From Microcystis aeruginosa NIES-2549 (lineage in GTDB: Bacteria > Cyanobacteriota > Cyanobacteriia > Cyanobacteriales > Microcystaceae), in contig NZ_CP011304.1 in assembly GCF_000981785.2 (NCBI RefSeq), positions 3,750,001 through 3,782,000 of the forward strand: DNA of 32,000 nucleotides. Direction: 5' to 3'. Of the stretch, positions 9,792 through 27,813 are shown in pieces; within the stretch, counting starts at the first letter, position 1; every line of letters starts with the position of its first letter. Under the pieces are notes generated by a model, which saw only the letters and a list, made by a program, of their open reading frames with translations, was not told the origin of the DNA and made no database searches. The translations under genes were made by a program, and so were the position numbers.

Positions 9792-10003
9792 TAGGGTTTG
9801 CTGAATAAATCTAAAAACCTTGTTGGATAGGAATTTTAGACTTTTTGTCAATCAAAAAGTGCCAGACCTTGGGGTGATCGGGGGGGGGAAGTTTAGGGAC
9901 TTTTTCCCTGAAAATTAGGTAATTGACCAGATGAAAATCGGTAAAACCCTACACCCCACACCCCACACCCTACCCCCACGAAAAACTTATTCAGCAAACC
10001 CTA
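9792..10003 (+). mobile_element. MITE family A, copy 1 (~212 bp)
   Basis: Terminal inverted repeats TAGGGTTTGCTGAATAA ... TTATTCAGCAAACCCTA. No ORF. By eye it is roughly 80% identical to the reverse complement of 27897..28100. Confidence 0.75.
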
Positions 10004-13000
10004 AATACAGTTCCTTATTTGGTTTTGCCAAAGATTCATTAACTGAGTTTCCATTGCTTTAATCCAGGTGGCCGTTTGAAATAGTGGTAAATCTCCCTGT
10101 TTTTGCTGCCATTGCTGAGTGAATTGGCGCAGTTCCTCCCAGTGGGTCCCCCAATAAATTGCTTGGACTTGATAGGATTCCCTACTTTCACAGACAAAAG
10201 ATTCTAAACCAGCAGCGTGGCAAATACTCATCCCCATTCGCGAAGCAAAAGTATCTCCAGGACAAGTCAGTAAAGGAACGCCAGCTTGAATGGCGCAAAC
10301 AGAAGTCGCTCCGCCATTATACAGAAACGTATCTAAAAACAAATCTGCCTGCCGACACACAGAGATGAATTCCCATGGCGAACGCTTAACTAAAAAGACA
10401 AGACGCTCTGGGTCAACGCCTGCGGTTTTCGCTTTTGTTCGCAGGGTTTGGGAAATATCCTCAGAAGACTCCGCCAACCACAGCACAGCGTTGGGTACAG
10501 CTTGCAAAATCTTGAGCCAGCAAGCAAAGAGTTCAGGCGACCATTTATCAGTGCGATTAAAACAAGCATAGACAAATCCCTCGTCTGGTAATCCCAGTTC
10601 CGACCGCGATGGCGGTGGTTCAGAAAAAGACAAAGGAGTAGTAACAAAAACGTGGGGTAATTCCACTAAAGTTTCCCTGTAATATTCCGCCAAATCTGGG
10701 GGAATTAAAAAGCGATCGCCCAGGATGTAGGGGATAAAATCTGCACCAAGGGTATCAGGATAACCCAGATAGTGGAGTTGCAGGGGAGCCGGTTGAAGTG
10801 CGAGAATTTCGGGACGACAGAGATTCGTATAACCACAGAGGTCGATTAGGATATGAATGCCATCACTGTGGATTTTCTCGGCGGCGGCTTCCACGCTCAG
10901 GGGGGCGATTGTTTCATAGTGGTCACACCCGGACCGAATCTGCTCCGTAATCTCATCAGTCGTATTCGACAGGGAATAGGCATATACCTCAAATTGATCG
11001 CGGTTATGGTATGCAAAAAGCTCCCGAATTAAAAAGCCGACAGCATGGTTGCGAAAATCGGCGGAGAGATAGCCAATCCGTAGTTTAGACGGTGTTTCTC
11101 GCGGGAAAATAAACCCTAAGCGGCGCTTCGACTCTACCATCCGCGCCTCGATACTTTTTGCCCAGTGACGGTTAAAGTCCCGGTGGAGAGTGAGAGAAGC
11201 GGGAAAACTGTTAAGAGAAAGGGGAGGTAGGGCCGCGTTTTCCTGGGTTTGAAGATAGTTCTCGAGCCGCGCTAAAAGCGCCGACATCCGTTGGTCATAG
11301 TCGTCCCAATCGCAAAGAGCAACTTGAAGATGTTCTCGCCGATATAGCACATTCAAATTATCCGGTTCCAGAGTTAAAGCATAATTAAAACACTCTAACC
11401 CCTTATTCGGATTGCCTTCCGCTTCATAAATTTCTCCAAGATTGCGATAAATACCTGGGATTTCGGGGTTGAGATCTAATGCTTTCTTAAAACAGAATTT
11501 TGCCCCGGTGATATTATTAACGCTCATTAGCAATCCCCCTAAATTCTGGTAGGCGGCGATATAATTTTCATCCAGACGGATTGCTTCTCGGTAATATTCC
11601 ATCGCTGCCGCAATATCTCCCAATTGCCGATAGAGATCCCCCAGCGCCAAATGCAAAGAAGCGCAAGGAAGGTAAATTAATCCCTGCTGCAAAAGTTGGA
11701 TTGCTTCTTGATAGCGGTGTTCATTGCTATACAATCCTCCCAAATTCTGATAAGCTACTAATAAATTCGGTTGCAGTTGAATCGCTTTTTGAAAAGCTTC
11801 AATTGCCTCTGGTAAATTCCCCTCCAGTTGCCACAAACTCCCTAAATTGCAATAGGTTGGAGCGTAATTGGGAAGTAGTTGGAGCGCTGATTGATAGAGG
11901 GCGATCGCCCCTGAATAATCCTGAAGTGCTACCCGTTGTTTCGCCTCCTTAAAAATAGTTTTTAGTTGAAATTTAAGGGAAAGATCAACTTTCTCATCCG
12001 CCTTTGCAAGTGTCAAATTAGATGGCTCTTCTTGGGAAACACTTGCAAGAGTTTTGTTCAGTAATTCCTGAAACAGTTGGTAAGATTCTTGGGCAAATCT
12101 TTGGGGTTGCCATAAGGTCGCTTGATGGTCGGTTTGTTTCGATTGCTGTAAGCGTTCTCGAATTTGTTGGCGAAGTTCAGAATCAGTCCCGTATCGCACT
12201 CCCCACTCAATATATTCTTCCCAACTGTAGGCGACACCTTCATCAATTCCCAAATTTTGCAGGAACGAATAGCCAAAACGAGATACCGCCTGTTTTCCGC
12301 AGCGAGTAACTAACGGTACATTAAACCAAAGAAACTCTAAATTGTGGCTCCCGCCATTGTAAGGATAACTGTCTAAACCCACATCACCAACATAGTAAAA
12401 TAGGCGATGTTCTTCCTCTAATTTTGGGCGTTCTAACCAACGACAGCGTTGGGGATCAACCCCAGCTTTTTCGCACTCTTCTTGATAGATTGTATGCCGA
12501 TAACTATAGCCTTTGTGGAGCAAAATACTGTTAGGTACTTGTTTGAGAATCGCCACCTGAGATTTCACCAAATCGCGGGTCAGTTTTTTCCCCGGTTTCA
12601 CCGAAAGATAAACCACCGTATCTGGTTCAATTTGTAAATTCTGACGCAATGTCTCACGCTCAAATGCTAGTACCGGAAAATCTTCGATCGCTATACCAGT
12701 CTCAGATAGATAAAGTAATTGTTCTTGATAGTATTGTTGTAACTCTGGCGGGTGGGTACGGCGATCGCAGAGGTAATAATTTTTCTCAGAAATATAAGGC
12801 GGCTCGCAACCTAACCAGGACACCACCACCGGCGCTGGTCGTTGGGCCAAAAGTAAAGCGTGCTTAAAATTCATTAAAGAATCAAGGTCAATCAAAATAT
12901 CGAGCCGATCAGCCCTAAGTTTTTCTAGAATTTCTTGCGGTGTTTGCTGAGAAAGATCGCTAAACTTTGCCCCTGTATGTTGAAAAGAATGCGTCAGATC

Positions 13001-15379
13001 ATCAGTCGCAGCAACACCAGTTTGGTACAAGAAAAGATAGGGGGTTAACTGCGCCCAGCCTTGAAGAATACTGCGACAACACCAACCGACAGAATGTCGT
13101 CGAAAATGCTGGGAAATAACGCCGATGCGTAATCCATCATTCCTCGTTTTCTCTTCTAATTCCCCACTATTTTGAGGAGAACTAGAGACCGGAAAAAAAT
13201 CAAGACAGTGCTGATGGTAAGCTTGGCTAATCAGTTGACTAAGGCGACTATTAGCAGCCGGATCGTCTCGCAAGTAGGGCAAACTAAAGAGGAGATATTG
13301 GTAAAGTTTTTGGGCTGCTTTTTCTTGTAAGTCTAGCTCCGGCTTTAAGAGGAGTTCTTCTAGGGCAGAAAAATACTGTTGGGACTGAGCATAAAAGCCA
13401 AATTCTAAATAGCCAGCCGTCAAGATGGTCAGCAGAACAATTCGATCAGATAGAGAAATTTCGCTATGGGGATAGTCCTGAATCTGGGCGTAGATTGTCC
13501 CCAGATTGTCATAAGCAGTTATCAAATCTGGTTTAATTTCTAACGCCCGTTGAAAAGCTTGAATCGCTTCTGATAATTTCCCCTCAAGTTGCCACAAACT
13601 CCCCAAATTGCAATAGGTTGGGGCGTAATTGGGAAGTATTTGTAGCGCTGATTGATAGCAGGCGATCGCCCCTGAATAATCCTGAAGCGCTACCCGTTGT
13701 TTCGCCTCCTCAAACAGGCTTTTTATTTGAACTTTGAGCAAAGGATCAGCCTTCTCCTGTGACGCTTGCTCTCGCAAATCAGGATGACCTTTGGTGGCCA
13801 ACATCTGATTACCCCAAGCATCAATCTTCCAGCCTCGCCCCTTGAGAAGGGGTTCTAAAGCCGCACTCGTCCAGCGGCTAGGGGTATAGAAAACGCGGAG
13901 AGTCTTTATCCCAGCATCCCAGCAATCCTTTTCCAACACACTCACTAAACGGGTAGCAATCCCTTGGTGACGGTAAGACGGCTCGACAAATAAAGAAATG
14001 ATTTCTGCTGTACCATCTGGCGAGTATTCACCAATCACAAAACCGAGTAAATCTCCCTCAAGCGCAGCAGATACACCGACAATTTCCCCCTTGGGGGACT
14101 GATTTTTCCAGCGGACCTGCAAACTCGGGAACATGATCCCATCATAAGGGGCGAGGCTTTCAGGATTAAGGTGATAGACCCGTTGGAAATTAATCGCAGC
14201 ATTGAGAGGCAGGTCCAGTCGGTTCCAGGCTTCCTCTTCCCCTTTAGCAAGCATCGTTGTGGCTTCCGATGGGGAAGTAGTCGCCTCTGGTACGCCAGCG
14301 ATGGGTGCTTTCGGTCCAAGACTGGGACGCTTAACCGTTGGTCTTGTCACCATTAACCCCTGACTTTCCGGGAAACAGACCAAACGTTCAATATCTTCAT
14401 TTTGTAAACCCAATAACTTCGGTCGTATCACCCCGGGTAAGACCACCACATCGAATAATTCTTCAATAGTGTCGTTAAAAATCAGAGAGTGGACAATTTC
14501 TCCGGTATTTAAATCCACTACCATTAGACCGCACAGAGCCTTATGTCCCGTTGCTAGAAGGCGTTCTTCCAACACTAGACCGCTAAACACCGCCGACCGT
14601 AACTTAGAAAGTCCGACAAAGGCATAGTTTTTCCAAAAGGCAAGCCCTCGCACAAAAGCCGAACAAAAGGTGATGGGATAAAATTTTTCCGCTTCAATAT
14701 AACCCAATTCTCCTGAACCCGAATTTAGCACCCAGAGTTTATCTCGATAAAAACGGGGAGAGTGGGGCATTGACAGTCCCCGCATGATAATTTCGTTACT
14801 GGGAAGATGGAGTAAAATGCCGCCATCCTGACGACAATTTCGCCAACCGGCTCCCTGATTAGTCCCACTGCAAGCGCTCAGATAAATTGGCTGTCCTTCT
14901 ACCAACGCCAATCCGTTTAAATGACAGCGGTCTTCCGCCCGCAGCTCAGAAATAAACGGCGGTTGCCAAATCGGGTTAAAACTATATCCAGTTTTGAGTT
15001 CAGCGAGACAACTAAAATCAGTATTAACAAATATTAGTTTTCCTTCTCCATCTAGTGCCACATCATGGACATTTACATTCCCCGTGGTGTAGGCTGAACT
15101 CGGTACATAAAGGCGATCGCCGTCTTGAAAAGTTTCTCCCGGTACGAGGCGGTTTTCCAGAGTCCAAATTTGATAGCGGGTACTCATGTAGAGAGAAGTG
15201 GAATCAGCATACAGTCCCATCGGTTTGTCGAACAAACGTTCCTGTAGCGTAATGCGCCCATCTTCATAACTTCCCAACATAATCAGTCGATTAGTTTGGT
15301 AAGTCGTGAAAGCAACACTAATTTTTTCTTGTTGTAACCAAGCTCCCAAATTCGGTGAGCATTCAATTTTTAAATCCAT
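10001..15379 (-). CDS. 1,792-aa multidomain protein: TIGR03032-like beta-propeller / GNAT acetyltransferase / TPR / GT41-like (divergent) / TPR / GT41-like (OGT-SPINDLY type)
   Basis: - aa 1-335 match the conserved TIGR03032 pattern (ISVAFTTYQ..., YVPSSAYTTGNVNVHD, EDRCHLNGLAL, GLSMPHSPRFY, LNSGSGELG, CGLMVVDLNTGEIVH).
- aa ~430-530 are GNAT (YRHQGIATRL).
- There are two TPR blocks.
- There are two LRIG(V/Y)xSxxFRxHxVG...YNGG(S/A)T modules typical of glycosyltransferase family 41.
- ATG start. Confidence 0.88.
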   Translation of the reverse strand: MDLKIECSPNLGAWLQQEKISVAFTTYQTNRLIMLGSYEDGRITLQERLFDKPMGLYADSTSLYMSTRYQIWTLENRLVPGETFQDGDRLYVPSSAYTTGNVNVHDVALDGEGKLIFVNTDFSCLAELKTGYSFNPIWQPPFISELRAEDRCHLNGLALVEGQPIYLSACSGTNQGAGWRNCRQDGGILLHLPSNEIIMRGLSMPHSPRFYRDKLWVLNSGSGELGYIEAEKFYPITFCSAFVRGLAFWKNYAFVGLSKLRSAVFSGLVLEERLLATGHKALCGLMVVDLNTGEIVHSLIFNDTIEELFDVVVLPGVIRPKLLGLQNEDIERLVCFPESQGLMVTRPTVKRPSLGPKAPIAGVPEATTSPSEATTMLAKGEEEAWNRLDLPLNAAINFQRVYHLNPESLAPYDGIMFPSLQVRWKNQSPKGEIVGVSAALEGDLLGFVIGEYSPDGTAEIISLFVEPSYRHQGIATRLVSVLEKDCWDAGIKTLRVFYTPSRWTSAALEPLLKGRGWKIDAWGNQMLATKGHPDLREQASQEKADPLLKVQIKSLFEEAKQRVALQDYSGAIACYQSALQILPNYAPTYCNLGSLWQLEGKLSEAIQAFQRALEIKPDLITAYDNLGTIYAQIQDYPHSEISLSDRIVLLTILTAGYLEFGFYAQSQQYFSALEELLLKPELDLQEKAAQKLYQYLLFSLPYLRDDPAANSRLSQLISQAYHQHCLDFFPVSSSPQNSGELEEKTRNDGLRIGVISQHFRRHSVGWCCRSILQGWAQLTPYLFLYQTGVAATDDLTHSFQHTGAKFSDLSQQTPQEILEKLRADRLDILIDLDSLMNFKHALLLAQRPAPVVVSWLGCEPPYISEKNYYLCDRRTHPPELQQYYQEQLLYLSETGIAIEDFPVLAFERETLRQNLQIEPDTVVYLSVKPGKKLTRDLVKSQVAILKQVPNSILLHKGYSYRHTIYQEECEKAGVDPQRCRWLERPKLEEEHRLFYYVGDVGLDSYPYNGGSHNLEFLWFNVPLVTRCGKQAVSRFGYSFLQNLGIDEGVAYSWEEYIEWGVRYGTDSELRQQIRERLQQSKQTDHQATLWQPQRFAQESYQLFQELLNKTLASVSQEEPSNLTLAKADEKVDLSLKFQLKTIFKEAKQRVALQDYSGAIALYQSALQLLPNYAPTYCNLGSLWQLEGNLPEAIEAFQKAIQLQPNLLVAYQNLGGLYSNEHRYQEAIQLLQQGLIYLPCASLHLALGDLYRQLGDIAAAMEYYREAIRLDENYIAAYQNLGGLLMSVNNITGAKFCFKKALDLNPEIPGIYRNLGEIYEAEGNPNKGLECFNYALTLEPDNLNVLYRREHLQVALCDWDDYDQRMSALLARLENYLQTQENAALPPLSLNSFPASLTLHRDFNRHWAKSIEARMVESKRRLGFIFPRETPSKLRIGYLSADFRNHAVGFLIRELFAYHNRDQFEVYAYSLSNTTDEITEQIRSGCDHYETIAPLSVEAAAEKIHSDGIHILIDLCGYTNLCRPEILALQPAPLQLHYLGYPDTLGADFIPYILGDRFLIPPDLAEYYRETLVELPHVFVTTPLSFSEPPPSRSELGLPDEGFVYACFNRTDKWSPELFACWLKILQAVPNAVLWLAESSEDISQTLRTKAKTAGVDPERLVFLVKRSPWEFISVCRQADLFLDTFLYNGGATSVCAIQAGVPLLTCPGDTFASRMGMSICHAAGLESFVCESRESYQVQAIYWGTHWEELRQFTQQWQQKQGDLPLFQTATWIKAMETQLMNLWQNQIRNCI

Positions 15380-15552
15380 AAAAAATACATGACTTACGAA
15401 ACTCCCAGGACGGGAGCACTGTTTCCTCCTCCAGTTGACAAATTTCTCGCCAGAATTCTTGTTCGGAAGCGCTGGGTTCAGTCATAGTCTGGTTACGACT
15501 TGACCCAAGCGGCGATTCAGTAGGCGTAATCCCTCACCTTGATGGTCTATAC

Positions 15553-15578
15553 CCTGGCGCAACGAAAGCTGCGCCAGG
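15553..15578 (-). terminator. 9-bp-stem hairpin downstream of the PEP-CTERM gene (weak terminator candidate)
   Basis: CCTGGCGCA-acgaaagc-TGCGCCAGG, 56 nt after the stop at 15634. There is no clear U-tract on the minus strand, hence the low confidence. Confidence 0.3.
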
Positions 15579-15633
15579 CTCTCAAGGAACAGACTGAGGA
15601 ATGCAGGTTTGAATTTCTAGTTAGACTGACTTT

Positions 15634-16290
15634 CTAAGCATCCTTGTTTTGTTTCTTATTCCTTTTGCCATGCTTTTTTTTAAGAATCGGGAGAGCGACT
15701 AAAACCACGCCAGTACCAAGAATAGTTGAGGGTTCGGGAATCTGCTCAGGGGGTTCGGGAATCTGCTCAGGGGTGAAGTTAAAATTAGTAATCGTTAAAA
15801 CCCCAGGCCCGCCGGTGTTGTTGTCGGTTTCGACAATAAAACCAAAAGTTTGTCCCGCCGTCAGAGACAAGGAAGAGACATGGTAATTATCGCCGTTTTG
15901 GAACCCTAAATAAGTGGGAGTGTTATTGATAATGTAACCCCCGCGATCGCCCGCCGCGCCTGGTGTATAAGGAACGTTTTCACCAGCAAAGGTCCAAGCA
16001 AAAGAAACTGTCCCTCCCTGAGTAATGGGGCCTGCTATCCAGTTGGTAGTTCCAGATGCCAAACTCTCATCATTTCCACCAGTCAAAACTACAGTTCCAC
16101 TTGCGGCATTAGTGGTATCTACTGAGCCATCAGCATCACTGTTATTGAGAGTAAAATTCCCTGGAGCAAATATGCCAGCGAATCCAAGAGCTAAGGCAGG
16201 GGAATGAAACCCGACAACCGCAGCAGTGGCGACAGTTGCTAGGAGAAAACTCCTGGAAGGCTTTAGACGAGAAACGAAGGAAGTATTCAT
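15634..16290 (-). CDS. PEP-CTERM sorting-domain secreted protein
   Basis: N-terminal signal peptide (LLATVATAAVVGFHSPALALG). C-terminal PEP motif, hydrophobic helix and basic tail (PEPSTILGTGVVLVALPILKKKHGKRNKK). ATG start. Confidence 0.85.
   Translation of the reverse strand: MNTSFVSRLKPSRSFLLATVATAAVVGFHSPALALGFAGIFAPGNFTLNNSDADGSVDTTNAASGTVVLTGGNDESLASGTTNWIAGPITQGGTVSFAWTFAGENVPYTPGAAGDRGGYIINNTPTYLGFQNGDNYHVSSLSLTAGQTFGFIVETDNNTGGPGVLTITNFNFTPEQIPEPPEQIPEPSTILGTGVVLVALPILKKKHGKRNKKQNKDA
15731..15772. repeat. perfect 21-bp tandem duplication (GGTTCGGGAATCTGCTCAGGG x2) inside the PEP-CTERM signal
   Basis: Direct reading of the sequence. It encodes PEQIPEP-PEQIPEP on the minus strand. Confidence 0.9.
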
Positions 16291-16345
16291 TGGTTTTGCG
16301 ATTAATTAATTGGCGAAAGACTGATGAATTAGTGGTTGATGAAAT

Positions 16346-16458
16346 GGCGTTGCTGATTTGAGATATGAATCTTCTCTTGTGGAATTTTTAAAACCTAGAC
16401 CCAAACTAACTTTTCGATGGGTGCAAGGTTGGCATTCATACCTTGATTCAGCAACGCC
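16346..16458. mobile_element. small MITE-like element, family E (~113 bp)
   Basis: Inverted termini GGCGTTGCTGA(t)T ... (a)TTCAGCAACGCC. Its left ~45 nt recur at 1859..1905 (downstream of cydB) with a few mismatches. Confidence 0.45.
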
Positions 16459-16472
16459 GATGAAATTACCCC

Positions 16473-17183
16473 TTAAATTGTGAAGTAATGATTGACATTT
16501 AAGGTGCCAGCAGTAGTAGGAGCATTCAATAACGAGCCAAACTTGACCAGCAGATCTGCTGTACCATTAAAGGCGGCTGTTCCATCATTTACCGATAGGT
16601 AGTAGGAGGAGCCATACCTGAATAAAAGTGATTCATTGGCTTGTAAATTGGCAGCAGCATAAGCCTGACTTGTGGCATTGCTTAAACTGGTTGCGGTTAT
16701 CACGCCGGCGTAGGAGAGTTTACTGGGGAGGGAGGATAATTGCAGGCGATCGCCCTCGGTCGAATTAAAGCGAGAAATAGTATCCATCGAGTTAAGCAGG
16801 GAATCGCTGAAGTTGGGATAAAAGAAGGTGTCCTTTCCGCTATAACCCAGGAGGTTATCAGCACCAGGCCCCCCTTCAAAAGTATTGGTGCCGAAGTAGC
16901 CAAATAGGTTATCATCTCCCCCCAATCCTCGAAATACTTCATCGGGGACAGTCGTCGGTGGTGCCGCCAGATTACCTGAGAGGTTATCTTTGCCTGAAGT
17001 TCCCGTAAAAGTAATCGCCCCAGTTGTATTATCGTCATTGATGATCTTGCCTGTTATGCTTCCCGATGAAATGGTTGTTCCCACCGGATTACTCAGGATC
17101 AAGGTGAGGGTTTCGTCAGGCTCTACGTCTGTATCGCCTTGAACCGGAACAGTGATTGTCCCGGAAAGCTGACAGGGGGACAA
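16473..17183 (-). CDS. detached C-terminal fragment of the giant surface-protein gene (end of a Calx-beta domain, RTX-like GGxGxD repeats, T1SS-type C-terminal target-like tail)
   Basis: The ORF opens with a TTG that lies inside the MITE terminal repeat. From 17168 downward it continues the interrupted Calx-beta domain (TITVPVQGDTDVEPDETLTLILSNP...INDD). This is followed by GGDDNLFGY.GTNTFEGGPGADNLLGYSGKDTFFY...DTISRFNSTEGDRLQLS. Confidence 0.7.
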   Translation of the reverse strand: MSPCQLSGTITVPVQGDTDVEPDETLTLILSNPVGTTISSGSITGKIINDDNTTGAITFTGTSGKDNLSGNLAAPPTTVPDEVFRGLGGDDNLFGYFGTNTFEGGPGADNLLGYSGKDTFFYPNFSDSLLNSMDTISRFNSTEGDRLQLSSLPSKLSYAGVITATSLSNATSQAYAAANLQANESLLFRYGSSYYLSVNDGTAAFNGTADLLVKFGSLLNAPTTAGTLNVNHYFTI

Positions 17184-17400
17184 GCTGGCTGAACTCCTTA
17201 CATCACAAGCTTTTTGGGGTGTTGGAGCGAAAAAGTTCGATGCAGCTCACCCCCCGTTGTTGATAAATATTTCTAGTAAGCTCGCCCAAATCCCTGATTA
17301 TTTCGTTAGCTTTTTGGCTGAAAGCGATGTATCTGTTTGTAACTGAGGAGCCTCAAAACCTTTGTGGACAATGCTTTGAGAGGTCTTGTCCCCCTGTCAG
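17169..17400. mobile_element. MITE family C (232 bp) inserted in the giant gene
   Basis: Perfect 16-bp TIRs: CTGACAGGGGGACAAG (17169..17184) and CTTGTCCCCCTGTCAG (17385..17400). They are flanked by a 9-bp direct duplication CCCGGAAAG (17160..17168 and 17401..17409). No ORF. Confidence 0.9.
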
Positions 17401-20400: not shown

Positions 20401-23400
20401 TGGATCATCATCATCATTTTGAATTGTTCCCGTCGCTGTGTTCGCCGTACCTACTGTATAACCGGTTCCCCCAGCGAGGGTCAAAATGACGGTTTCATCC
20501 GGTTCCATTGTTGTGTCAGTAGTGGGGTCAACCGTTACAGTCGCAGTCGCTGACCCAGCCAAGAAGTTGACACTGGTGGGAATAGAAGCGTAATCGGTTC
20601 CATTGGTTGCTGTACCACTGACTGTATAGTTAACCGTCAAAGGATTGGTTGTTAGTCCTGTACGGGTGAAGGTATAAACCAGATTTGTTGTCCCGTCTTC
20701 GGTAACACTTCCAGGCGCAACCGCAACCGTAACACTGGTATCGTCATTTGTAATTGTTCCCGTCGCTGTGCTCGCCGTACCTAAGGTATAACCGGTTCCC
20801 TCAGTCAGGGTGAAAATGACGGTTTCATCCGGTTCAACTATTGTGTCAGCAGTGGGGTCAACCGTTACAGTCGCAGTTGCAGAATTAGCCGCGAAGGTGA
20901 TGGTTTTTCCGGTTCCGGGGGTTGCTCCACTGTAGTCGCTGCTCTCGGCTGTTCCGGTGATGCTGTAGTTGACCGTCAAAGGATTGTTTATTAGTCCTGT
21001 ACGGGTGAAGGTATAAACCAGATTTGTTGTCCCATCTTCATTAACACTTCCAGGCGCAACCGCAAGGGTGATGCCAGGTAAATCGTCATTCGTAATTGTT
21101 CCCGTCGCCGTTGCTGTCGTAATATAGGCGTTCGTCGGGCTAGAAAGGGTGACGGTAAACCCTTCATCGAGTTCAACGTCGGTGTCTCCTGACACATTGA
21201 CGGTGATGGTTTGACTGGTTTCATTGGCGGCAAAATTCACCGTCCCTGACGGTAAAGTTACTCCAAAGTCAGTAGCATTGGCTGGATTAGTCCCAGTCCC
21301 GGTAACAGCCCAGTTGACGCTACTGCTATCAGAGGTATCCCCAGTGCGGGTGACGGTAAAGGTAAAGGCTTTTGTCCCTGTATCTCCTTCGGTTTGGCTG
21401 GCATTAGTCGCCGCAATCGCTAACCAAGGAACATTCTGATAAAACAGCGTGTTGCCAAATTCTTCTCCGACAAAGGCATCCAGGTCGCCGTCGCCGTCAA
21501 TATCCACTAACGTCGGCTTGACAAAAGTAGACACCTTCGTCAGACCGAAGGGGTTGGTGGAGGGAGCAGCGAAGGTGGGCGCACTGGCACTCCCCGTATT
21601 CCGATAAAACAGCGTATTGCCAAGGGAGTTGCCAACGAAGGCATCCAGGTCGCCGTCGCCGTCAATATCCACTAACGTCGGCTTGGCATACAAACCCACA
21701 TTCGTCAGACCGAAGGGGTTGGTGGAGGGAGCAGCGAAGGTGGGCGCACTCGCACTTCCCGTATTCCGATAAAACACTATATTGCCATCGCTGTTTCCGG
21801 CGAAGGCATCCAGGTCGCCGTCGTTGTCAATATCCACAAACGTCGGCTTGGCATTAGCACCTAAATCTGTCAGACCGAAGGGGTTGGTGGAGCGAGCAGC
21901 GAAGGTGGGCGCACTGGCACTCCCCGTATTCCGATAAAACAGTATATTGCCGTCTCCGTTGCCGACGAAGGCATCCAGGTCGCCGTCGCCGTCAATATCC
22001 ACAAACGTCGGCGCGGCAGCCACCGCCACAGTCGTCAGACCGAAGGGGTTGGTGGAGGGAGCGGCGAAGGTGGGCGCACTCGCACTCCCTGTATTCCGAT
22101 AAAACAGCGTATTGCCATCGAAGTTGCTGACAAAGGCATCCAGGTCGCCGTCGCCGTCAATATCCACTAACGCCGGATGGGAAAAACTAAGCACATCCGT
22201 CAGACCGAAGGGGTTGGTGGAGGCAGGGGCGAAGGTGGGATCTTGTTGCGCGATGTCATTATCGGTAATTTGGGCAACGACGTTAGGGATACTTCTGCCG
22301 TTATAGCCACTGTCGCTACTGCTGACTGTGGTGGTAATTACGCCCCGGTGCGGCCCTTCCCCAATCGTGTCATTGACTGCGGTTACAGTCACAGTTTGAG
22401 GGGTATTCCAGTTAGCCGAGGTGAAGGTCAGGCTTGTCTGACTCAGGCTTAACTGGTTGCCCGGATTCAGGGCAAGGATGACATCTGCTGTGGGAGCCCC
22501 CTTTAGAGCAACGGTATAGGTGGCTGTTGCGCCGCTTTCGGTTACTTGCAGTAGTGTATTGCTGAGGATGATTCCGGGATCATCATTGAGAATTGTTCCC
22601 GTCGCCGTTGCTGTCGTAATCGTGGCATTCGTCGGACTAGAAAGGGTGACGGTAAACCCTTCATCGGGTTCAATAGTCGCGTCTCCTGATACATTGACGG
22701 TGATGACTTTACTGGTTTCATTGGCGGCAAAACTCACTGTCCCAGAAGGTAAGATTCCCCCAAAGTCAGTAGTATTGGCTGGGTTAGTCCCAGTCCCGGT
22801 AACAGCCCAGTTAGCGCTACTGGTACCAGAGGTATTCCCACTGCGGGTGACGGTAAAGGTAAAGGCTTTTGTCCCTGTATCTCCTTCAGTTTCGCTGGCA
22901 TCAGTCGCCGCAATCGCTAAGGCAGTATCATCATTCGTAATTGTTCCCGTCGCTGTGCTCGCCGTACCTAAGGTATAACCGGTTCCCTCAGTGAGGGTGA
23001 AAATGACGGTTTCATCCGGTTCAACTATTGTGTCAGCAGTGGGGTCAACCGTTACCGTCGCAGTCGTTGACCCAGCCAAGAAGGTGATGGTTTTTCCGTC
23101 TCCCGGGGTTACTCCACTGTAGTCGCTGCTATCGGCTGTTCCGGTGATGCTGTAGTTAACCGTCAAAGCATTGGTTGTTAGTCCTGTACGGGTGAAGGTA
23201 TAAACCAGATTTGTTGTCCCATTTTCGGTAACACTTCCAGGCGCAACCGCAAGGGTGATGATAGGGAAATCGTCATTCGTAATTGTTCCCGTCGCTGTGT
23301 TCGCCGTACCTACTGTATAACCGGTTCCCCCAGCGAGGGTCAAAATGACGGTTTCATCCGGTTCCATTGTTGTGTCAGTAGTGGGGTCAACCGTTACCGT

Positions 23401-26400
23401 CGCAGTCTCTGACCCAGCCGCGAAGGTGATGGTTTTTCCGGTTCCGGGGGTTGCTCCACTGTAGTCGCTGCTATCGGCTGTACCACTGACTGTATAGTTA
23501 ACCGTCAAAGCATTAGTCGTTACTCCACTACGGGTGAAGGTATAAACCAGATTTGGTGTTCCGTCTTCGGTAACACTTCCAGGCGCAACCGCAACCGTAA
23601 CACTGGTATCGTCATTTGTAATTGTTCCCGTCGCTGTGCTCGCCGTACCTAAGGTATAACCGGTTCCCTCAGTGAGGGTGAAAACGACGGTTTCATCCGG
23701 TTCAACTATTGTGTCAGTAGTGGGGTTAACCGTTACAGTCGGTGCAGTCGCTGATCCAGCCGCGAAGGTGATGGTTTTTCCGGCTCCGGGGGTTGCTCCA
23801 ATGTAGTCGCTGCTATCGGCTGTTCCGGTGATGCTGTAGTTGACCGTCAAAGCATTGGTTGTTGGTCCTGTACGGGTAAATGTATAAACCAGATTTGTTG
23901 TCCCGTCTTCGGTAACACTTCCAGGCGCAACCGCAAGGGTGATGCTAGGTAAATCGTCATTCGTAATTGTTCCCGTCGCCGTTGCTGTCGTAATATAGGC
24001 ATTCGTCGGGCTAGAAAGGGTGACGGTAAACCCTTCGTTAGCTTCAAAGTCGGTGTCTCCTGACACATTGACGGTGATGGTTTGACTGGTTTCATTGGCG
24101 GCAAAATTCACCGTCCCTGACGGTAAGGTTTCCCCAAAGTCGGCAGCATTGGCCTGATTAGTCCCAGTCACGGTAACAGCCCAGTTGACGCTACTGCTAT
24201 CAGAGGTATCCCCACTGCGGGTGACGGTAAAGGTAAAGGCTTTTGTCCCTGTATCTCCTTCGGTTTGGCTGGCATTAGTCGCCGCAATCGCTAACCAAGG
24301 AACATTCTCATAAAACAGCGTGTTGCCCACCCAGTTGCCAATAAAGGCATCCAGGTCGCCGTCGCCGTCAATATCCACTAACGTCGGCGCGGCATCATAA
24401 ACCACATCCGTCAGACCGAATGGGTTGTAAGAGGGAGCAGCGAAGGTGGGCGCACTGGCACTCCCCGTATTGCGATAAAACAGCGTATTGCCAAGCTCGT
24501 TGCCGATGAAAGCATCCAAGTCGCCGTCGCCGTCAATATCCACAAACGTCGGCTGGGCATAAGTAACCACATTCGTCAGACCGAAGGGGTTGGTGGAGGG
24601 AGTAGCGAAGGCAGGCGCACTGGCACTCCCGGTATTGCGATAAAACAGCGTATTGCCATAGTAGTTGCCAATAAAGGCATCCAGGTCGCCGTCGTCGTCA
24701 ATATCCACTAACGTCGGCACGGCATCATAAATCACATCCGTCAGACCGAAGGGGTTGGTGGAGGGAGCAGCGAAGGTGGGGGCGCTGGCACTCCCCGTAT
24801 TCCGATAAAACAGCGTATTGCCCTCTTCGTTTCCGATGAAAGCATCCAGGTCGCCGTCGCCGTCAATATCCACAAACGTCGGCGCGGCATACAAACCCAC
24901 ATCCGTCAGACCGAAGGGGTTGGTGGAGCCAGCAGCGAAGGCAGGCGCACTCGCACTTCCCGTATTCCGATAAAACAGCGTATTACCAAAGAAGTCGCCG
25001 ACAAAGGCATCCAGGTCGCCGTCGTTGTCAATATCCACTAACGTCGGCGTGGTATAATCACCCGCATCCGGCAGACCGAAGGGGTTGGTGGAGGCAGGGG
25101 CGAAGGTGGGATCTTGTTGCGCGATGTCGTTATCGGTGATTTGGGCAAGGACGTTAGCAACAGGTATGCCGTTATAGACACTGTCGCTACTGCTGACTGT
25201 GGTGCTAATTACGCCCCGGTGCGGTCCTTCCCCAATCGTGTCATTGACTGCGGTTACAGTCACAGTTTGGGGGGTATCCCAGTTAGCCGAGGTGAAGGTC
25301 AGGCTTGTCTGACTCAGGCTTAACTGTCTGCCCGGATTCAGGGTAAGGATGACATCTGCTGTGGGAGCATCGTTAAGAACAACGGTATAGGTGGCTGTTG
25401 CGCCGTCTTCGGTTACTTGCAGTAGTGTATTGCTGAGGGCGATTTTGGGATCATCATTGAGAATTGTTCCCGTCGCCGTTGCTGTGGTAATCGTGGCATT
25501 CGTCGGGCTAGAAAGGGTGACGGTAAACCCTTCATTAGTTTCAATGTCGATGTCTCCTGACACATTGACGGTGATGGTTTTACTGGTTTCATTGGCGGCA
25601 AAACTCACTGTCCCAGAAGGTAAGATTCCCCCAAAGTCAGTAGCATTGGCTGGGTTAGTCCCAGTCCCGGTAACAGCCCAGTTGGCGCTACTGGTACCAG
25701 AGGTTTTCCCACTGCGGGTGACGGTAAAGGTAAAGGCTTTTGTCCCTGTATCTCCTTCAGTTTGAATTGCATTCGTCGCCGCAATCGCTAAGCCAGGATC
25801 GTCATTTGTAATTGTTCCCGTCGCTGTGCTCGCCGTACCTACTGTATAACCGGTTCCCTCAGTGAGGGTGAAAACGACGGTTTCATCCGGTTCAAATGTT
25901 AGATCAAAAACGGGGTCAACCGTTACAGTCACAGTTGCAGAATTAGCCGCGAAGGTGATGGTTTTTCCGGTTCCGGGGGTTGCTCCACTGTAGTCGCTGC
26001 TATCGGCTGTTCCGGTGATGCTGTAGTTGACCGTCAAAGCATTGGTTGTTGGTCCTGTACGGGTGAAGGTATAAACCAGATTTGTTGTCCCATCTTCATT
26101 AACACTTCCAGGCGCAACCGCAAGGGTGATGCTAGGTAAATCGTCATTCGTAATTGTTCCCGTCGCCGTTGCTGTCGTAATATAGGCATTCGTCGGGCTA
26201 GAAAGGGTGACGGTAAACCCTTCATTAGCTTCAAAGTCGGTGTCTCCTGACACATTGACGGTGATGACTTGACTGGTTTCATTGGCGGCAAAATTTACTG
26301 TCCCTGACGGTAAAGTTACTCCAAAGTCGGCAGCATTGGCCTGATTAGTCCCAGTCCCGGTAACAGCCCAGTTGACGCTACTGCTATCAGAGGTATCCCC

Positions 26401-27324
26401 ACTGCGGGTGACGGTAAAGGTAAAGGCTTTTGTCCCTGTATCTCCTTCGGTTTGAATGGCAGTCGTCGCCGCAATCGCTAACCAAGGAACATTCTGATAA
26501 AACAGCGTGTTGCCCGCCGAGTTGCCAATAAAGGCATCCAGGTCGCCGTCGCCGTCAATATCCGCTAACGCCGGCTTGGCATACAAACCCACATTCGCCA
26601 GACCGAAGGGATTGGTGGAGGCAGCAGCGAAGGTGGGCGCACTGGCACTCCCCGTATTGCGATAAAACAGGGTATTGCCCGCCAAGTTGCCGACCAAGGC
26701 ATCCAGGTCGCCGTCGCCGTCAATATCCACAAACGTCGGCTTGGCAAAACTACCCACATCCGTCAGACCGAAGGGGTTGGTGGAGGCAGTAGCGAAGGCG
26801 GGGGCACTCGCACTCCCCGTATTGCGATAAAACCGTATATTGCCAGCCGAGTCGCCAACAAAGGCATCCAGGTCGCCGTCGCCGTCAATATCCACAAACG
26901 TCGGCGCGGCACCATTTCCCACATTTACCAGACCGAAGGGGTTGATGGAGGGAGTAGCGAAGGTGGGCGCACTCGCACTCCCCGTATTGCGATAAAACCG
27001 CGTATCGCCATAGTGGCTGCCGACGAAGGCATCCAGGTCGCCGTCGTTGTCAATATCGACAAACGTCGGCATGGCACCATTTACCACATTCGTCAGACCG
27101 TAGGGGTTGGTGGAGGGAGCAGCGAAGGCAGGCGCACTGGCACTTCCCGTATTCCGATAAAACAGGGTATTGCCAGCCCCATTTCCGACGAAGGCATCGA
27201 GGTCGCCGTCGCCGTCAATATCCACTAACGTCGGCATGGCATAATCACCCACATTCGTTAGACCGAAGGGGTTGCTGGAGGCGGGGACGAAGGTGGGATC
27301 TTGAGGGAAGTTTGGTTCAGGCAT
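17353..27324 (-). CDS. giant FG-GAP/VCBS + Calx-beta + cadherin-domain surface protein (truncated by MITE insertion)
   Basis: - There are 15 FG-GAP/VCBS-type blades (P(T/A)(F/L)VDIDGDGDLDAF(V/I)GN...LFYRNTGSASAP.FA) in three blocks of five.
- There are more than 20 Calx-beta-like modules (..EGDTGTKAFTFTVTRSG...VSFAANETS..ITVNVSGD...E..EGFTVTLS.PTNA.I...TATGTI.NDD).
- There is one cadherin-like module (APVITSS...ATDTDG...VRLKASADYE).
- The track start at 27330 is TTG; the ATG at 27324 (MPEPNFPQDPTF) is the likely start.
- The last 12 codons and the stop are read out of the MITE. Confidence 0.9.
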   Translation of the reverse strand: MPEPNFPQDPTFVPASSNPFGLTNVGDYAMPTLVDIDGDGDLDAFVGNGAGNTLFYRNTGSASAPAFAAPSTNPYGLTNVVNGAMPTFVDIDNDGDLDAFVGSHYGDTRFYRNTGSASAPTFATPSINPFGLVNVGNGAAPTFVDIDGDGDLDAFVGDSAGNIRFYRNTGSASAPAFATASTNPFGLTDVGSFAKPTFVDIDGDGDLDALVGNLAGNTLFYRNTGSASAPTFAAASTNPFGLANVGLYAKPALADIDGDGDLDAFIGNSAGNTLFYQNVPWLAIAATTAIQTEGDTGTKAFTFTVTRSGDTSDSSSVNWAVTGTGTNQANAADFGVTLPSGTVNFAANETSQVITVNVSGDTDFEANEGFTVTLSSPTNAYITTATATGTITNDDLPSITLAVAPGSVNEDGTTNLVYTFTRTGPTTNALTVNYSITGTADSSDYSGATPGTGKTITFAANSATVTVTVDPVFDLTFEPDETVVFTLTEGTGYTVGTASTATGTITNDDPGLAIAATNAIQTEGDTGTKAFTFTVTRSGKTSGTSSANWAVTGTGTNPANATDFGGILPSGTVSFAANETSKTITVNVSGDIDIETNEGFTVTLSSPTNATITTATATGTILNDDPKIALSNTLLQVTEDGATATYTVVLNDAPTADVILTLNPGRQLSLSQTSLTFTSANWDTPQTVTVTAVNDTIGEGPHRGVISTTVSSSDSVYNGIPVANVLAQITDNDIAQQDPTFAPASTNPFGLPDAGDYTTPTLVDIDNDGDLDAFVGDFFGNTLFYRNTGSASAPAFAAGSTNPFGLTDVGLYAAPTFVDIDGDGDLDAFIGNEEGNTLFYRNTGSASAPTFAAPSTNPFGLTDVIYDAVPTLVDIDDDGDLDAFIGNYYGNTLFYRNTGSASAPAFATPSTNPFGLTNVVTYAQPTFVDIDGDGDLDAFIGNELGNTLFYRNTGSASAPTFAAPSYNPFGLTDVVYDAAPTLVDIDGDGDLDAFIGNWVGNTLFYENVPWLAIAATNASQTEGDTGTKAFTFTVTRSGDTSDSSSVNWAVTVTGTNQANAADFGETLPSGTVNFAANETSQTITVNVSGDTDFEANEGFTVTLSSPTNAYITTATATGTITNDDLPSITLAVAPGSVTEDGTTNLVYTFTRTGPTTNALTVNYSITGTADSSDYIGATPGAGKTITFAAGSATAPTVTVNPTTDTIVEPDETVVFTLTEGTGYTLGTASTATGTITNDDTSVTVAVAPGSVTEDGTPNLVYTFTRSGVTTNALTVNYTVSGTADSSDYSGATPGTGKTITFAAGSETATVTVDPTTDTTMEPDETVILTLAGGTGYTVGTANTATGTITNDDFPIITLAVAPGSVTENGTTNLVYTFTRTGLTTNALTVNYSITGTADSSDYSGVTPGDGKTITFLAGSTTATVTVDPTADTIVEPDETVIFTLTEGTGYTLGTASTATGTITNDDTALAIAATDASETEGDTGTKAFTFTVTRSGNTSGTSSANWAVTGTGTNPANTTDFGGILPSGTVSFAANETSKVITVNVSGDATIEPDEGFTVTLSSPTNATITTATATGTILNDDPGIILSNTLLQVTESGATATYTVALKGAPTADVILALNPGNQLSLSQTSLTFTSANWNTPQTVTVTAVNDTIGEGPHRGVITTTVSSSDSGYNGRSIPNVVAQITDNDIAQQDPTFAPASTNPFGLTDVLSFSHPALVDIDGDGDLDAFVSNFDGNTLFYRNTGSASAPTFAAPSTNPFGLTTVAVAAAPTFVDIDGDGDLDAFVGNGDGNILFYRNTGSASAPTFAARSTNPFGLTDLGANAKPTFVDIDNDGDLDAFAGNSDGNIVFYRNTGSASAPTFAAPSTNPFGLTNVGLYAKPTLVDIDGDGDLDAFVGNSLGNTLFYRNTGSASAPTFAAPSTNPFGLTKVSTFVKPTLVDIDGDGDLDAFVGEEFGNTLFYQNVPWLAIAATNASQTEGDTGTKAFTFTVTRTGDTSDSSSVNWAVTGTGTNPANATDFGVTLPSGTVNFAANETSQTITVNVSGDTDVELDEGFTVTLSSPTNAYITTATATGTITNDDLPGITLAVAPGSVNEDGTTNLVYTFTRTGLINNPLTVNYSITGTAESSDYSGATPGTGKTITFAANSATATVTVDPTADTIVEPDETVIFTLTEGTGYTLGTASTATGTITNDDTSVTVAVAPGSVTEDGTTNLVYTFTRTGLTTNPLTVNYTVSGTATNGTDYASIPTSVNFLAGSATATVTVDPTTDTTMEPDETVILTLAGGTGYTVGTANTATGTIQNDDDDPALAITPSTLSQTEGNTGTKAFTFTVTRSGDTSGSSSANWTVTGTGTNQANATDFVGGTLPSGTVSFAANETSQIITVNVSGDTTVETNEEFTVTLSNPTNATITTAAATGTIQNDDDDPALAITPSTLSQTEGNTGTKAFTFTVNRSGNTTGTSSANWTVTGTGTNQANATDFVGGILPSGTVSFAANETSQIITVNVSGDTTVEPDEGFTVTLDTPTNATITTAAATGTIQNDDDDPALAITPSTLSQTEGNTGTKAFTFTVNRSGNTTGTSSANWTVTGTGTNQANATDFVGGILPSGTVSFAANETSQIITVNVSGDTTVEPDEGFTVTLDTPTNATITTATATGTIQNDDDDPALAITPSTLSQTEGNTGTKAFTFTVTRSGNTTGTSSANWTVTGTGTNQANATDFVGGTLPSGTVSFAANETSQIITVNVSGDTTVETNEEFTVTLSNPTNATITTATATGTIQNDDDDPALAITPSTLSQTEGNTGTKAFTFTVTRSGDTSGSSSANWTVTGTGTNQANATDFVGGILPSGTVSFAANETSQTITVNVSGDTTVEPDEGFTVTLDTPTNATITTATATGTIQNDDDDPALAITPSTLSQTEGNTGTKAFTFTVTRSGDTSGSSSANWTVTGTGTNQANATDFVGGILPSGTVSFAANETSQTITVNVSGDTTVEPDEGFTVTLDTPTNATITTATATGTIQNDDTNTNQAPVITSSNSATVLENASISTLIYTAAATDTDGPVNQIVWSLGGNDASAFTIGSNNGEVRLKASADYETKSSYSIDVIATDQNGSGVSTNKTVTIGVIDQAVFSINNVTVNENAGTAIFTVTATDPISNGTSTATVNYATANGTAFGSTIANGDYVSTSGSLSFGTGDSSKTISVVINDDTLYEPTPETFSVNLSNPTNGAIANSTSTGTINDNDSLPIISAQPSQVLEGNSGTTTQLIFQVSLSARSGQDVSVDYSVTAGTATAGNDYVSTSGTLRLTAGTLSGLTGGQDLSKHCPQRF
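18274..20415. repeat. six near-identical 357-bp (119-aa) tandem Calx-beta units
   Basis: The boundary motif ATTTTGAAT recurs at 18274, 18631, 18988, 19345, 19702, 20059 and 20416, an exact 357-nt period. The units differ only at a handful of linked positions. Confidence 0.92.
21423..22248. repeat. FG-GAP/VCBS five-blade block 3 (approximate bounds)
   Basis: Five copies of GCATCCAGGTCGCCGTCG(C/T)CGTCAATATCCAC at ~165-nt spacing. Confidence 0.8.
24294..25120. repeat. FG-GAP/VCBS five-blade block 2 (approximate bounds)
   Basis: Same 55-57-aa blade unit as block 3, five copies. The block ends with the NVPWLAIAAT linker as in blocks 1 and 3. Confidence 0.8.
26480..27324. repeat. FG-GAP/VCBS five-blade block 1 (approximate bounds)
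   Basis: Five blade units starting at the very N-terminus of the protein. Confidence 0.8.
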
Positions 27325-27384: not shown

Positions 27385-27461
27385 TAACAAAAGCAAAAGT
27401 ATGGATTTAAGTAGCTGGTTATAATTAAATTTAAAATGGATTTCAGGTTCGATCCCCCCTG

Positions 27462-27677
27462 CCCCCCTTGATAAGCTATCCATTATAGGGATCTTTCTTA
27501 ACAATTTTTTCAGTAAGCACTCCAACTCTTATCCTGACTTGATTTCAGTTTTTTCTTTGTCAGTAAGGGTGTCAACAAGGAATATTACCAATTGTTAACC
27601 GAGTCTTGAAAGCCTTGTGCTACAAAGGTTTGAAATGTTAAGAAAGATGTGACTAAAGGACAGCTTGATAAGGGGGG
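27462..27677. mobile_element. MITE-like element, family D (~216 bp)
   Basis: Imperfect inverted termini of about 45 bp: CCCCCCTTGATAAGCTATCC...GATCTTTCTTAACA versus TGTTAAGAAAGATG...GGACAGCTTGATAAGGGGGG. No ORF. Confidence 0.5.
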
Positions 27678-27708
27678 TGTCTGATAATTTTTAACGCCTA
27701 CCTACTTA

Positions 27709-27813
27709 TACTAAATCCGTTGAGGATAGGCTACATATCAGGAGAGGCAAGAGGCAGAAGGCAAGAGGCAAAAGGGGGAATAAATAATCAGTTTTTAATA
27801 ACCAGATTTAGTA
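27709..27813. mobile_element. MITE family B, copy 1 (105 bp)
   Basis: TIR TACTAAATC...GATTTAGTA with a GGCAAGAGGCAGAAGGCAAGAGGCAAAAG core. It is flanked by the 3-bp duplication TTA (27706..27708 and 27814..27816). A second 105-bp copy lies at 28488..28592. Confidence 0.8.

Follow-up and report, generated by a model that had tools for sequence, protein, structure and literature searches.

A TIGR03032 enzyme with GNAT and GT41 domains beside an FG-GAP/RTX adhesin gene in Microcystis aeruginosa: a candidate adhesin-maturation cassette

Does the large multidomain enzyme encoded at one end of a three-gene block of Microcystis aeruginosa NIES-2549 act on the surface proteins encoded beside it? The block lies within a stretch of 32,000 nucleotides (contig NZ_CP011304.1, positions 3,750,001 to 3,782,000; hereafter the window, whose positions are counted from its first letter), and is formed by three open reading frames (ORFs) on the minus strand, located between an ilvB-like gene (7867-9720, plus strand) and serA (29500-31077, plus strand), with housekeeping genes making up the rest of the flanks. 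In the direction of transcription these are the gene for a giant repeat protein, referred to here as the adhesin (start at 27324), the gene for a small PEP-CTERM protein (16290..15634) and the enzyme gene (15379..10001). The original prediction for this locus had described the three genes as co-directional, which is borne out by our stop-to-stop ORF calls on DNA without annotation, and had proposed that the enzyme is a dedicated modifier of both of its neighbours. We find that the tie to the adhesin stands, through a conserved pairing of the TIGR03032 domain of the enzyme with FG-GAP repeat proteins, and that the PEP-CTERM protein as a substrate and N-glycosylation as the chemistry find no support. 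We consider it very probable that enzyme and adhesin are functionally coupled, and put the chance that this coupling consists of a covalent modification of the adhesin at even or marginally better.

Profile hidden Markov model searches recovered every domain that had been claimed for the enzyme, namely, TIGR03032, GNAT, TPR and two GT41 modules (Table 1). The TIGR03032 profile matched with 440.2 bits (cut-off 251.5) over positions 2-333 of its 335, and DUF4915 (PF16261) with 420.5 bits (cut-off 35). The GNAT domain scored 42.2 bits with Acetyltransf_1 (PF00583; cut-off 20.7) and satisfies the acyl-CoA motif A, (Q/R)xxGx(G/A), with RHQGIA at residue 470; its PDB matches are generic GNATs only. 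Glyco_transf_41 reached 371.6 bits (gathering score 25) in four stretches that make up two modules, each of them directly preceded by a TPR array (residues 560-635 and 1138-1352). The enzyme is a cytoplasmic protein with neither signal peptide nor membrane segment, again as predicted, the highest Kyte-Doolittle mean over 19 residues being 1.49.

The nearest relative of the enzyme is a 'TIGR03032 family protein' of the same length, 1,792 residues, from Microcystis panniformis (90% identity). The form with two GT41 modules is rare, as it was found in four out of 119 relatives with GT41, and it is the single-GT41 form of about 1,200 residues, TIGR03032-GNAT-TPR-GT41, that is widespread in cyanobacteria. 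The initial stretch of some 85 residues of the two TPR arrays is about 80% identical (residues ~541-625 against ~1128-1212; window positions 13505-13759 against 11740-11995), and beyond it the two TPR-GT41 modules share about 25-30% identity. That the high identity is confined to these first residues points to a junction within the enzyme gene that was left by a recent recombination or duplication.

The evidence for coupling comes mainly from gene neighbourhoods. One genome per species was searched with an alignment of the TIGR03032 domain, which returned at least 597 loci with a relative, of which the top 80 were retained; from each collection the scans read the first 600 matches to the pattern, and many of the contigs are short. 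The closest relatives, 56-64% identical, have the GNAT domain fused. Among GNAT-fused genes, 14 out of 18 have an ORF resembling the FG-GAP protein of the window within 3 kb and on the same strand (E-values from 1e-50 to 1e-226), in hosts that include Nitrosomonas, Dolichospermum, Nostoc, Chroococcus, Methylocucumis, Dapis, Massilia, Gomphosphaeria and Desulfocapsa. The four exceptions are locus L016, locus L008, on a short contig, and both genes of locus L001, where the contig ends 1 kb past the second gene. Contigs annotated with Pfam provided three further pairings, namely, from Nostoc (C057), Acaryochloris thomasi and Cyanobium. In Nitrosomonas, Chroococcus and Dolichospermum the cassette is reduced to the two genes, with unrelated housekeeping genes on both sides.

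The pairing extends to enzymes of other architectures. A preliminary figure of one FG-GAP neighbour for 66 enzymes without GNAT was rejected, since the phmmer query, the FG-GAP block of the window, misses the classical PF01839-type repeats; it was replaced by Pfam scans and by a generic Ca-loop motif detector, which counts as FG-GAP-like any ORF with at least four DxDxDGxxD loops. Ten ORFs that directly follow a stand-alone TIGR03032 gene were scanned with Pfam, and eight contain FG-GAP repeats (PF01839, 6-34 repeats), six of these with RTX repeats as well, in hosts that include Okeania, Nostoc, Tolypothrix, Pirellula, other planctomycetes and Sulfuritalea. With the Ca-loop detector, an FG-GAP-like ORF was found within 1.3 kb of the TIGR03032 gene at 40 of the 62 informative loci, the rates by type of enzyme being 12/14 for GNAT-fused, 8/9 for GT41-fused and 21/38 for TIGR03032 alone; an earlier screen at 700 nt had left seven loci where such an ORF occurs solely farther off, within ±10 kb. 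The partner is usually an RTX-type exoprotein. GT41 is fused or adjacent to TIGR03032 at 16 of 81 loci, and it can also be a separate gene in a row with the others, for example with the order [GT41][TIGR03032][FG-GAP/RTX] at locus L040 of Sulfuritalea and [FG-GAP-like][GT41][TIGR03032] at L080; the pairing is also present at loci that are devoid of any GT41.

The association was also recovered from the opposite direction. In a metagenome scan with an alignment of FG-GAP repeats, a TIGR03032 gene was adjacent at 11 of 80 FG-GAP loci, nine of which are among the 21 closest. Taken together, the forward and reverse surveys, of the kind that had been called for together with the prediction, place TIGR03032 genes beside FG-GAP genes in cyanobacteria, beta- and gammaproteobacteria (Nitrosomonas, methanotrophs), planctomycetes, Desulfobacterota and Binatia; related species are non-independent observations in these counts, though in several phyla the pairing is seen again with other genes on its flanks. 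A literature search for FG-GAP together with GT41, GNAT or RTX returned no description of a TIGR03032-FG-GAP pairing.

Several of the surveyed loci have features of their own. At L090 (774-10397), four tandem FG-GAP genes, each of them starting MADPNF...TNPF, come after a single TIGR03032-GNAT gene, an arrangement that looks like one enzyme with several substrates. In Cyanobium (L088, 188-5238), the upstream partner is a protein with FG-GAP_3 and Hint_2 domains, whose gene overlaps by 4 nt with the start codon of a TIGR03032-GNAT-TPR-GT41 gene. In L016 (5293-11440, Methylococcaceae), two small secreted paralogues with a sorting-like tail, VP.PAAVWLFGSALAGL...RRK, are encoded 3-4 kb upstream. 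A gene for APS kinase directly adjoins the TIGR03032/FG-GAP cassette at two unrelated loci (L001, 4121-4648; L085, 18404-18952), and one relative of the enzyme, P0074, has a sulfotransferase domain fused to it; sulfation may be a further accessory modification in the TIGR03032 family.

If enzyme and adhesin interact directly, the repeats of the partner should vary with the type of enzyme, and this is what was found. The motif (S/T)xNP(F/Y)GL occurs in all 15 FG-GAP repeats of the window adhesin. The frequency of NPF per repeat is 0.78 in partners of GNAT-type enzymes, and zero both in the classical FG-GAP partners of the stand-alone clade and in FG-GAP proteins without TIGR03032 nearby. At the informative metagenome loci, nine of the NPF-rich FG-GAP proteins have TIGR03032 and two do not, and among the NPF-poor ones the numbers are two and 22 (Fisher p = 3.7e-5). 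Therefore, clades of TIGR03032 pair with distinct types of FG-GAP repeat, as a direct molecular interaction would predict.

TIGR03032 is a family of no known function, and a search of a literature library found no paper in it mentioning TIGR03032 or DUF4915. At 50% identity, about 913 clusters (E ≤ 1e-30) belong to the family, with members fused to GNAT, GT41, GT2, GT11 and sulfotransferase domains. A search of PDB sequences with the TIGR03032 profile matched no solved structure, and an AlphaFold model of the domain is an all-beta propeller (pLDDT 88, pTM 0.89), for which Foldseek returned generic six-bladed propellers only, with TM-scores of about 0.5, among them the YWTD domains of LRP6 and LDLR, virginiamycin B lyase, luciferin-regenerating enzyme and lactonases. 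In an alignment of twelve TIGR03032 domains, the invariant polar residues include H105, C124, D150, C152, H153, H206, C283, E307 and D310, and the motifs DRCHLNG (H153) and SMPHSPR (H206) are kept across phyla. In the model these residues sit where successive inner strands start, and they probably form, on the face of the channel, a site for catalysis or metal binding.

The GT41 modules are not of the HMW1C/NGT type. In a search of PDB sequences, both match OGT, SPINDLY, XcOGT and the TPR-OGT of Thermobaculum, with E = 3.5e-68 for module b against human OGT and E = 1e-24 for module a against the Thermobaculum enzyme, and no HMW1C-type chain was among the matches at E ≤ 1e-3. By sequence, both thus fall within the OGT/SPINDLY type, and they lack the intervening domain that human OGT has. 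Alignment of 122 GT41 domains from TIGR03032-fused relatives with human OGT showed that the equivalent of K842, the UDP-binding lysine, is invariant (122/122), and that of H558 is retained in 119 of the 122 domains, both residues being present in both modules of the window. The prediction had made its case dependent on GT41 catalytic residues, and for these two it stands; the equivalent of H498, as described below, is not kept. We rate the O-glycosylation of serine and threonine residues of the adhesin by these modules as possible, with somewhat less than an even chance.

A known enzyme of this kind with a giant adhesin as its neighbour is HMW1C/NGT of Haemophilus influenzae and Actinobacillus, a cytoplasmic GT41 enzyme whose gene lies beside that of the exported adhesin HMW1, which it modifies before export. 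The original prediction had leant on this model, by which the GT41 modules would act in the cytoplasm and N-glycosylate the sequons, N-X-S/T, in Calx-beta units and PEP-CTERM protein alike. Much of what suggested it is real: the enzyme does belong to GT41, it is cytoplasmic, its gene adjoins that of a giant adhesin, and there are indeed five sequons in each unit of the tandem Calx-beta array and five in the mature part of the PEP-CTERM protein, as counted in the prediction, plus one in its signal peptide. However, five per unit is true only of the tandem array (18268-20436), since an older Calx-beta unit has two, and sequon counts are no higher than in composition-preserving shuffles. The whole adhesin has 79, compared with 70.6 ± 7.1 in its shuffles (z = 1.2, p = 0.13), one tandem Calx-beta unit five against 3.3 (p = 0.20), the PEP-CTERM protein six against 3.1 (p = 0.07) and FG-GAP block 1 none against 3.4. 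The seven-unit tandem region gave z = 4.5, which arises because near-identical copies are counted repeatedly: with units that are 96% identical, the array is one evolutionary unit and its sequons are one observation, not seven. Across species, the median z is -0.6 for partners of GT41-bearing enzymes and +0.4 for partners of enzymes without GT41.

A sequon density no higher than in shuffled controls had been named beforehand as a refuting outcome, and this is what was found. This, together with OGT/SPINDLY-type modules that have TPR arrays, leaves the N-glycosylation reading unsupported. HMW1C/NGT enzymes have no TPR array, and the conserved link here, TIGR03032 with FG-GAP, exists also without GT41 and involves a partner domain that in the window is free of sequons in its first block. 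The PEP-CTERM protein has a signal peptide and exits by the Sec route, with nothing to mark it as a substrate. Thus, we hold N-glycosylation at sequons to be very improbable, both as a chemistry and as the model of an HMW1C-like enzyme as a whole.

The adhesin gene was correctly predicted to encode a giant repeat protein, and yet the ORF present there is not the whole gene, since it is split by a miniature inverted-repeat transposable element (MITE) of 232 bp. The ORF of 3,325 residues, with matches to FG-GAP_3 (12 stretches), Calx-beta (13 stretches) and cadherin, terminates inside this element, and removal in silico of the MITE and one copy of its target duplication restores a single ORF of 3,538 residues. 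The inverted repeats are perfect over 16 bp, the target duplication measures 9 bp, and the corresponding empty site is found in another Microcystis assembly (L170, 9117-9145). The MITE is single-copy in the window and was not found in the other loci fetched. The detached C-terminus has a bluetail domain (48.7 bits, cut-off 21) and a match to HemolysinCabind of 23.0 bits, equal to the cut-off of 23; this end is presumed to be the type I secretion signal region. The adhesin has 19% threonine, in which its Calx-beta arrays are rich, no cysteine, no signal peptide and a peak hydropathy of 1.17, and no type I ABC transporter, membrane fusion protein or outer-membrane channel is encoded within the window. 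Lacking both a Sec signal and cysteine, the adhesin most likely leaves the cell in unfolded form, through a type I secretion system whose genes lie elsewhere. Since the MITE separates it from its secretion signal, the cassette is probably non-functional in this genome.

In two independent Microcystis assemblies it is the orthologue of the enzyme that is split, within GT41 module a (L170, 10927-16304; L171, 1011-6388), into two overlapping ORFs of 794 and 1,026 or 1,009 residues, and in L170 the adhesin is likewise split, into 268 and 2,300 residues. Different strains of Microcystis seem to inactivate the cassette in different ways, as far as these assemblies can tell. The N-terminal FG-GAP region of the adhesin (26755-27324) is 60-70% identical to that of partners from Nitrosomonas and Nostoc (L005, L006 and L009), and the TIGR03032 domains are about 60% identical between the same phyla. 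Such conservation of enzyme and adhesin is unusual for an adhesin cassette, and suggests horizontal spread or strong constraint.

The third protein of the block, of 218 residues, has a hydrophobic N-terminus and, at its C-terminus, a PEP motif, a hydrophobic helix and a basic tail. Its modelled core is a beta-sandwich (pLDDT >90), for which the top PDB matches are CBM61, CBM6, CBM35, MAM and PA14 domains. Homologues come mostly from Microcystis, including L170, which has the same flanks and the PEP-CTERM gene between adhesin and enzyme. A homologue follows an FG-GAP/cadherin/RTX adhesin in Synechocystis salina (L004, 18874-19197), and another follows a Calx-beta/RTX-bluetail adhesin on a metagenome contig (L176), where a degraded TIGR03032 gene precedes the adhesin. 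The trio is seen again in Microcystis, Synechocystis salina and the lineage of this contig. More distant homologues are found in other contexts, among large surface proteins, and some have a VP(F/L)E(S/T)DALP-type tail in place of PEP. Cyanobacterial PEP-CTERM proteins have been proposed to link the cell surface with extracellular polysaccharide (PMC12188702). In agreement with this proposal, and because of its modelled lectin/CBM-like fold, the protein is probably a lineage-specific third component of the cassette that serves as a surface or polysaccharide anchor, and not a substrate of the enzyme.

The account that best accommodates these observations, to which we give an even chance of being correct, is that the enzyme matures the FG-GAP/RTX adhesin next to it, in the cytoplasm and as its dedicated partner. 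The beta-propeller of TIGR03032 would be the conserved core that recognizes, and probably acts on, the FG-GAP repeats, most likely at the (S/T)xNPFGL loop. The fused GNAT domain and the two OGT-type GT41 modules, with their TPR arrays, would decorate the adhesin before export, the expected products being acyl groups and O-linked sugars on serine and threonine residues. The adhesin, in its intact form of 3,538 residues, would then leave the cell unfolded through the type I system, to work at the surface together with the lectin-like PEP-CTERM protein. It is tempting to go further and to see in TIGR03032 a new class of beta-propeller protein-modifying enzymes, which would place an as yet undescribed modification on the (S/T)xNPFGL loop in the FG-GAP repeats of type I adhesins and, as the specificity module, recruit OGT-type GT41 and GNAT, with an exosortase-sorted lectin-like protein tethering the glycosylated adhesin. 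If true, this would provide the first defined class of exported-protein substrates for bacterial OGT homologues, and yet we regard it as doubtful in this full form.

A number of observations weigh against the adhesin-maturation account. About one third of the informative TIGR03032 loci have no FG-GAP neighbour, including L016 despite its GNAT fusion, and L020 has a GT2 gene instead. The repeat motif (S/T)xNPFGL offers no lysine as a target for GNAT, and the serine and threonine content of FG-GAP linkers in partners of GT41-bearing enzymes, 0.35 compared with 0.30, is not significantly higher (p = 0.076). In the GT41 modules, the position of OGT H498, a residue whose catalytic role is debated, is leucine, phenylalanine or tyrosine across the fused family, module b having leucine there and module a a gap, and in module b the UDP-contacting residues K898, H901 and D925 are replaced by P, F and C, respectively. 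The MITE in the window and the split enzyme in other Microcystis imply that the cassette is dispensable under at least some conditions. Finally, the chemistry is wholly inferred.

Since TIGR03032 has no characterized homologue, and its only structural matches are generic propellers at TM-scores of about 0.5, it could also be a non-catalytic binding module. In such a case, TIGR03032 would be a partner of FG-GAP proteins, such as a cytoplasmic holdase, a secretion adaptor or an inhibitor that binds the repeats before export, and GNAT and GT41 would either use it for docking or act elsewhere. Gene pairing and motif covariation demonstrate partnership and not catalysis, the top structural matches are the ligand-binding YWTD propellers of LRP6 and LDLR, and fusion to domains as diverse as GNAT, GT41, GT2, GT11 and sulfotransferase is what would be expected of a targeting module. 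Against it, the invariant His, Cys, Asp and Arg residues at the starts of the inner strands are more like a catalytic or metal site than a binding surface, and enzymatic propellers such as virginiamycin B lyase, luciferin-regenerating enzyme and lactonase, were matched as well. We consider this alternative unlikely. The same fusions to GT2, GT11 and sulfotransferase, together with the APS kinase genes beside the cassettes of L001 and L085, can also be read in a different way, as signs that the enzyme works on a glycan or polysaccharide, by building or modifying it, to which adhesin and PEP-CTERM protein would then bind at the cell surface, hence their clustering. The CBM-like fold of the PEP-CTERM protein and the proposed role of such proteins in linking surface and polysaccharide (PMC12188702) fit this possibility. 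It is at odds, however, with the minimal cassettes, which consist of TIGR03032, with or without GNAT, and an FG-GAP gene, with no genes for glycan assembly or export nearby, and with the fact that the pairing follows a repeat motif in the protein partner. Moreover, characterized GT41 enzymes glycosylate proteins. Overall, a glycan as the substrate appears quite improbable to us.

That three unrelated genes just happen to lie side by side in a variable region is barely credible. The genomes of Microcystis are highly plastic (PMC2442094), and a MITE at this locus and a frameshifted enzyme gene in another strain are in keeping with such plasticity; but the pairing is found in many phyla, with different flanking genes each time, and FG-GAP genes are concentrated at the adjacent position and not spread over the ±10 kb flanks.

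Seen as an enzyme for adhesin maturation, the window protein combines traits of systems that are individually familiar. Like OGT/SPINDLY, XcOGT and Thermobaculum OGT, it has a TPR array followed by a GT41 domain of GT-B fold and keeps the equivalents of K842 and H558, but it lacks the intervening domain, has H498 replaced, carries two catalytic modules in one chain fused to TIGR03032 and GNAT, and is paired in the genome with an exported protein instead of having nucleocytoplasmic targets. In HlyC-type systems, a cytoplasmic acyltransferase, whose gene adjoins that of the type I secreted RTX protein HlyA, modifies this protein prior to its export. HMW1C-HMW1 and HlyC-HlyA thus share with the window the logic of a cytoplasmic modifier encoded beside its exported substrate; HlyC, however, belongs to a separate family and acylates internal lysines from acyl-ACP, whereas the window enzyme has a generic Acetyltransf_1 GNAT and faces a repeat motif without lysine. 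With PEP-CTERM/exosortase systems, the 218-residue protein shares its signal peptide and the three C-terminal elements named above, but neither exosortase nor polysaccharide genes are found within the window, and, as mentioned, certain homologues have a different tail. A precedent is from the same genus: MrpC, a cell-surface protein of M. aeruginosa PCC 7806, has been reported as a potential target of a SPINDLY-family O-glycosyltransferase (PMC2442094). Both cases comprise a GT41-type enzyme and a surface protein, although MrpC, compared here by its description, is not described as an FG-GAP/RTX adhesin. Therefore, the pairing of GT41 with a surface protein is not unprecedented in cyanobacteria, and the statement that none had been described was too strong.

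The surveys provide the TIGR03032 family with a concrete partner, namely, FG-GAP exoproteins, mostly of RTX type, and with a candidate recognition motif; in addition, they connect the OGT-like GT41 enzymes of bacteria, for which few substrates are known, with exported adhesins of a defined class. Colony and bloom formation in Microcystis depends on cell-surface glycoproteins and polysaccharide, and a strain-variable cassette for adhesin maturation, with breaks that differ between strains, could contribute to differences in aggregation.

Table 1. Position of the genes, domains and repeats of the three-gene block within the window.
Feature	Position	Strand	Description or basis
Enzyme gene	10001..15379	-	1,792 aa, intact; TIGR03032, GNAT, short TPR array, GT41a, TPR array, GT41b
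TIGR03032/DUF4915 beta-propeller, aa 4-334	14378..15370	-	TIGR03032 profile and all-beta model
GNAT acyltransferase core, aa 425-496	13892..14107	-	PF00583; motif A RHQGIA, aa 470-475
Short TPR array a, ~aa 560-635	13475..13702	-	TPR_11, TPR_9 stretches
GT41 module a, ~aa 745-1090, divergent	12110..13147	-	H762, K932 align with human OGT H558, K842
TPR array b, ~aa 1138-1352	11324..11968	-	TPR_1, TPR_2, TPR_8 stretches
GT41 module b, aa 1355-1787, OGT-type	10019..11317	-	H1445, K1612 align with human OGT H558, K842
Small secreted protein, 218 aa	15634..16290	-	Signal peptide, ~140-aa beta-sandwich, PEP-CTERM tail
PEP-CTERM sorting signal, aa 184-209	15664..15741	-	TIGR04155 (cyano_PEP), 24.0 bits, cut-off 21.6
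Detached adhesin 3' end	16473..17168	-	Last Calx-beta unit, RTX nonapeptides (16827-16928), bluetail (16482-16649)
MITE, 232 bp	17169..17400	.	16-bp terminal inverted repeats CTGACAGGGGGACAAG; 9-bp duplication CTTTCCGGG at 17160-17168 and 17401-17409
Adhesin gene, part 5' of MITE	17401..27324	-	3 x 5 FG-GAP repeats, Calx-beta arrays, cadherin; no signal peptide, no Cys
Cadherin domain	17965..18228	-	PF00028, 52 bits
Tandem Calx-beta array	18268..20436	-	Period 357 bp, 6.1 copies, 96% matches; five N-X-S/T per unit
FG-GAP block 3, five repeats	21467..22239	-	TRF, motif positions
FG-GAP block 2, five repeats	24310..25110	-	TRF, motif positions
FG-GAP block 1, five 55-aa repeats	26482..27324	-	TRF period 165 bp; each with (S/T)xNP(F/Y)GL and DIDGDGDLD

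Around and between these features, no intrinsic terminator was predicted on the minus strand in either intergenic gap of the trio, and scans of the window for Rfam families and tRNAs gave no matches. Upstream of the adhesin gene there is an AT-rich stretch of about 2 kb (27400-29450; GC content 0.35 at 28-29 kb), which contains no ORF of more than 100 residues and no match to Pfam (one ORF tested), Rfam or tRNA. On the opposite side of the block, the ilvB-like gene encodes an acetolactate-synthase-like enzyme of the thiamine pyrophosphate-dependent type, with a zinc-ribbon domain at its C-terminus. Farther out, a protein of 229 residues (2991-3680) combines a domain of LRAT/NlpC-P60 type with a PspA/IM30-like segment.

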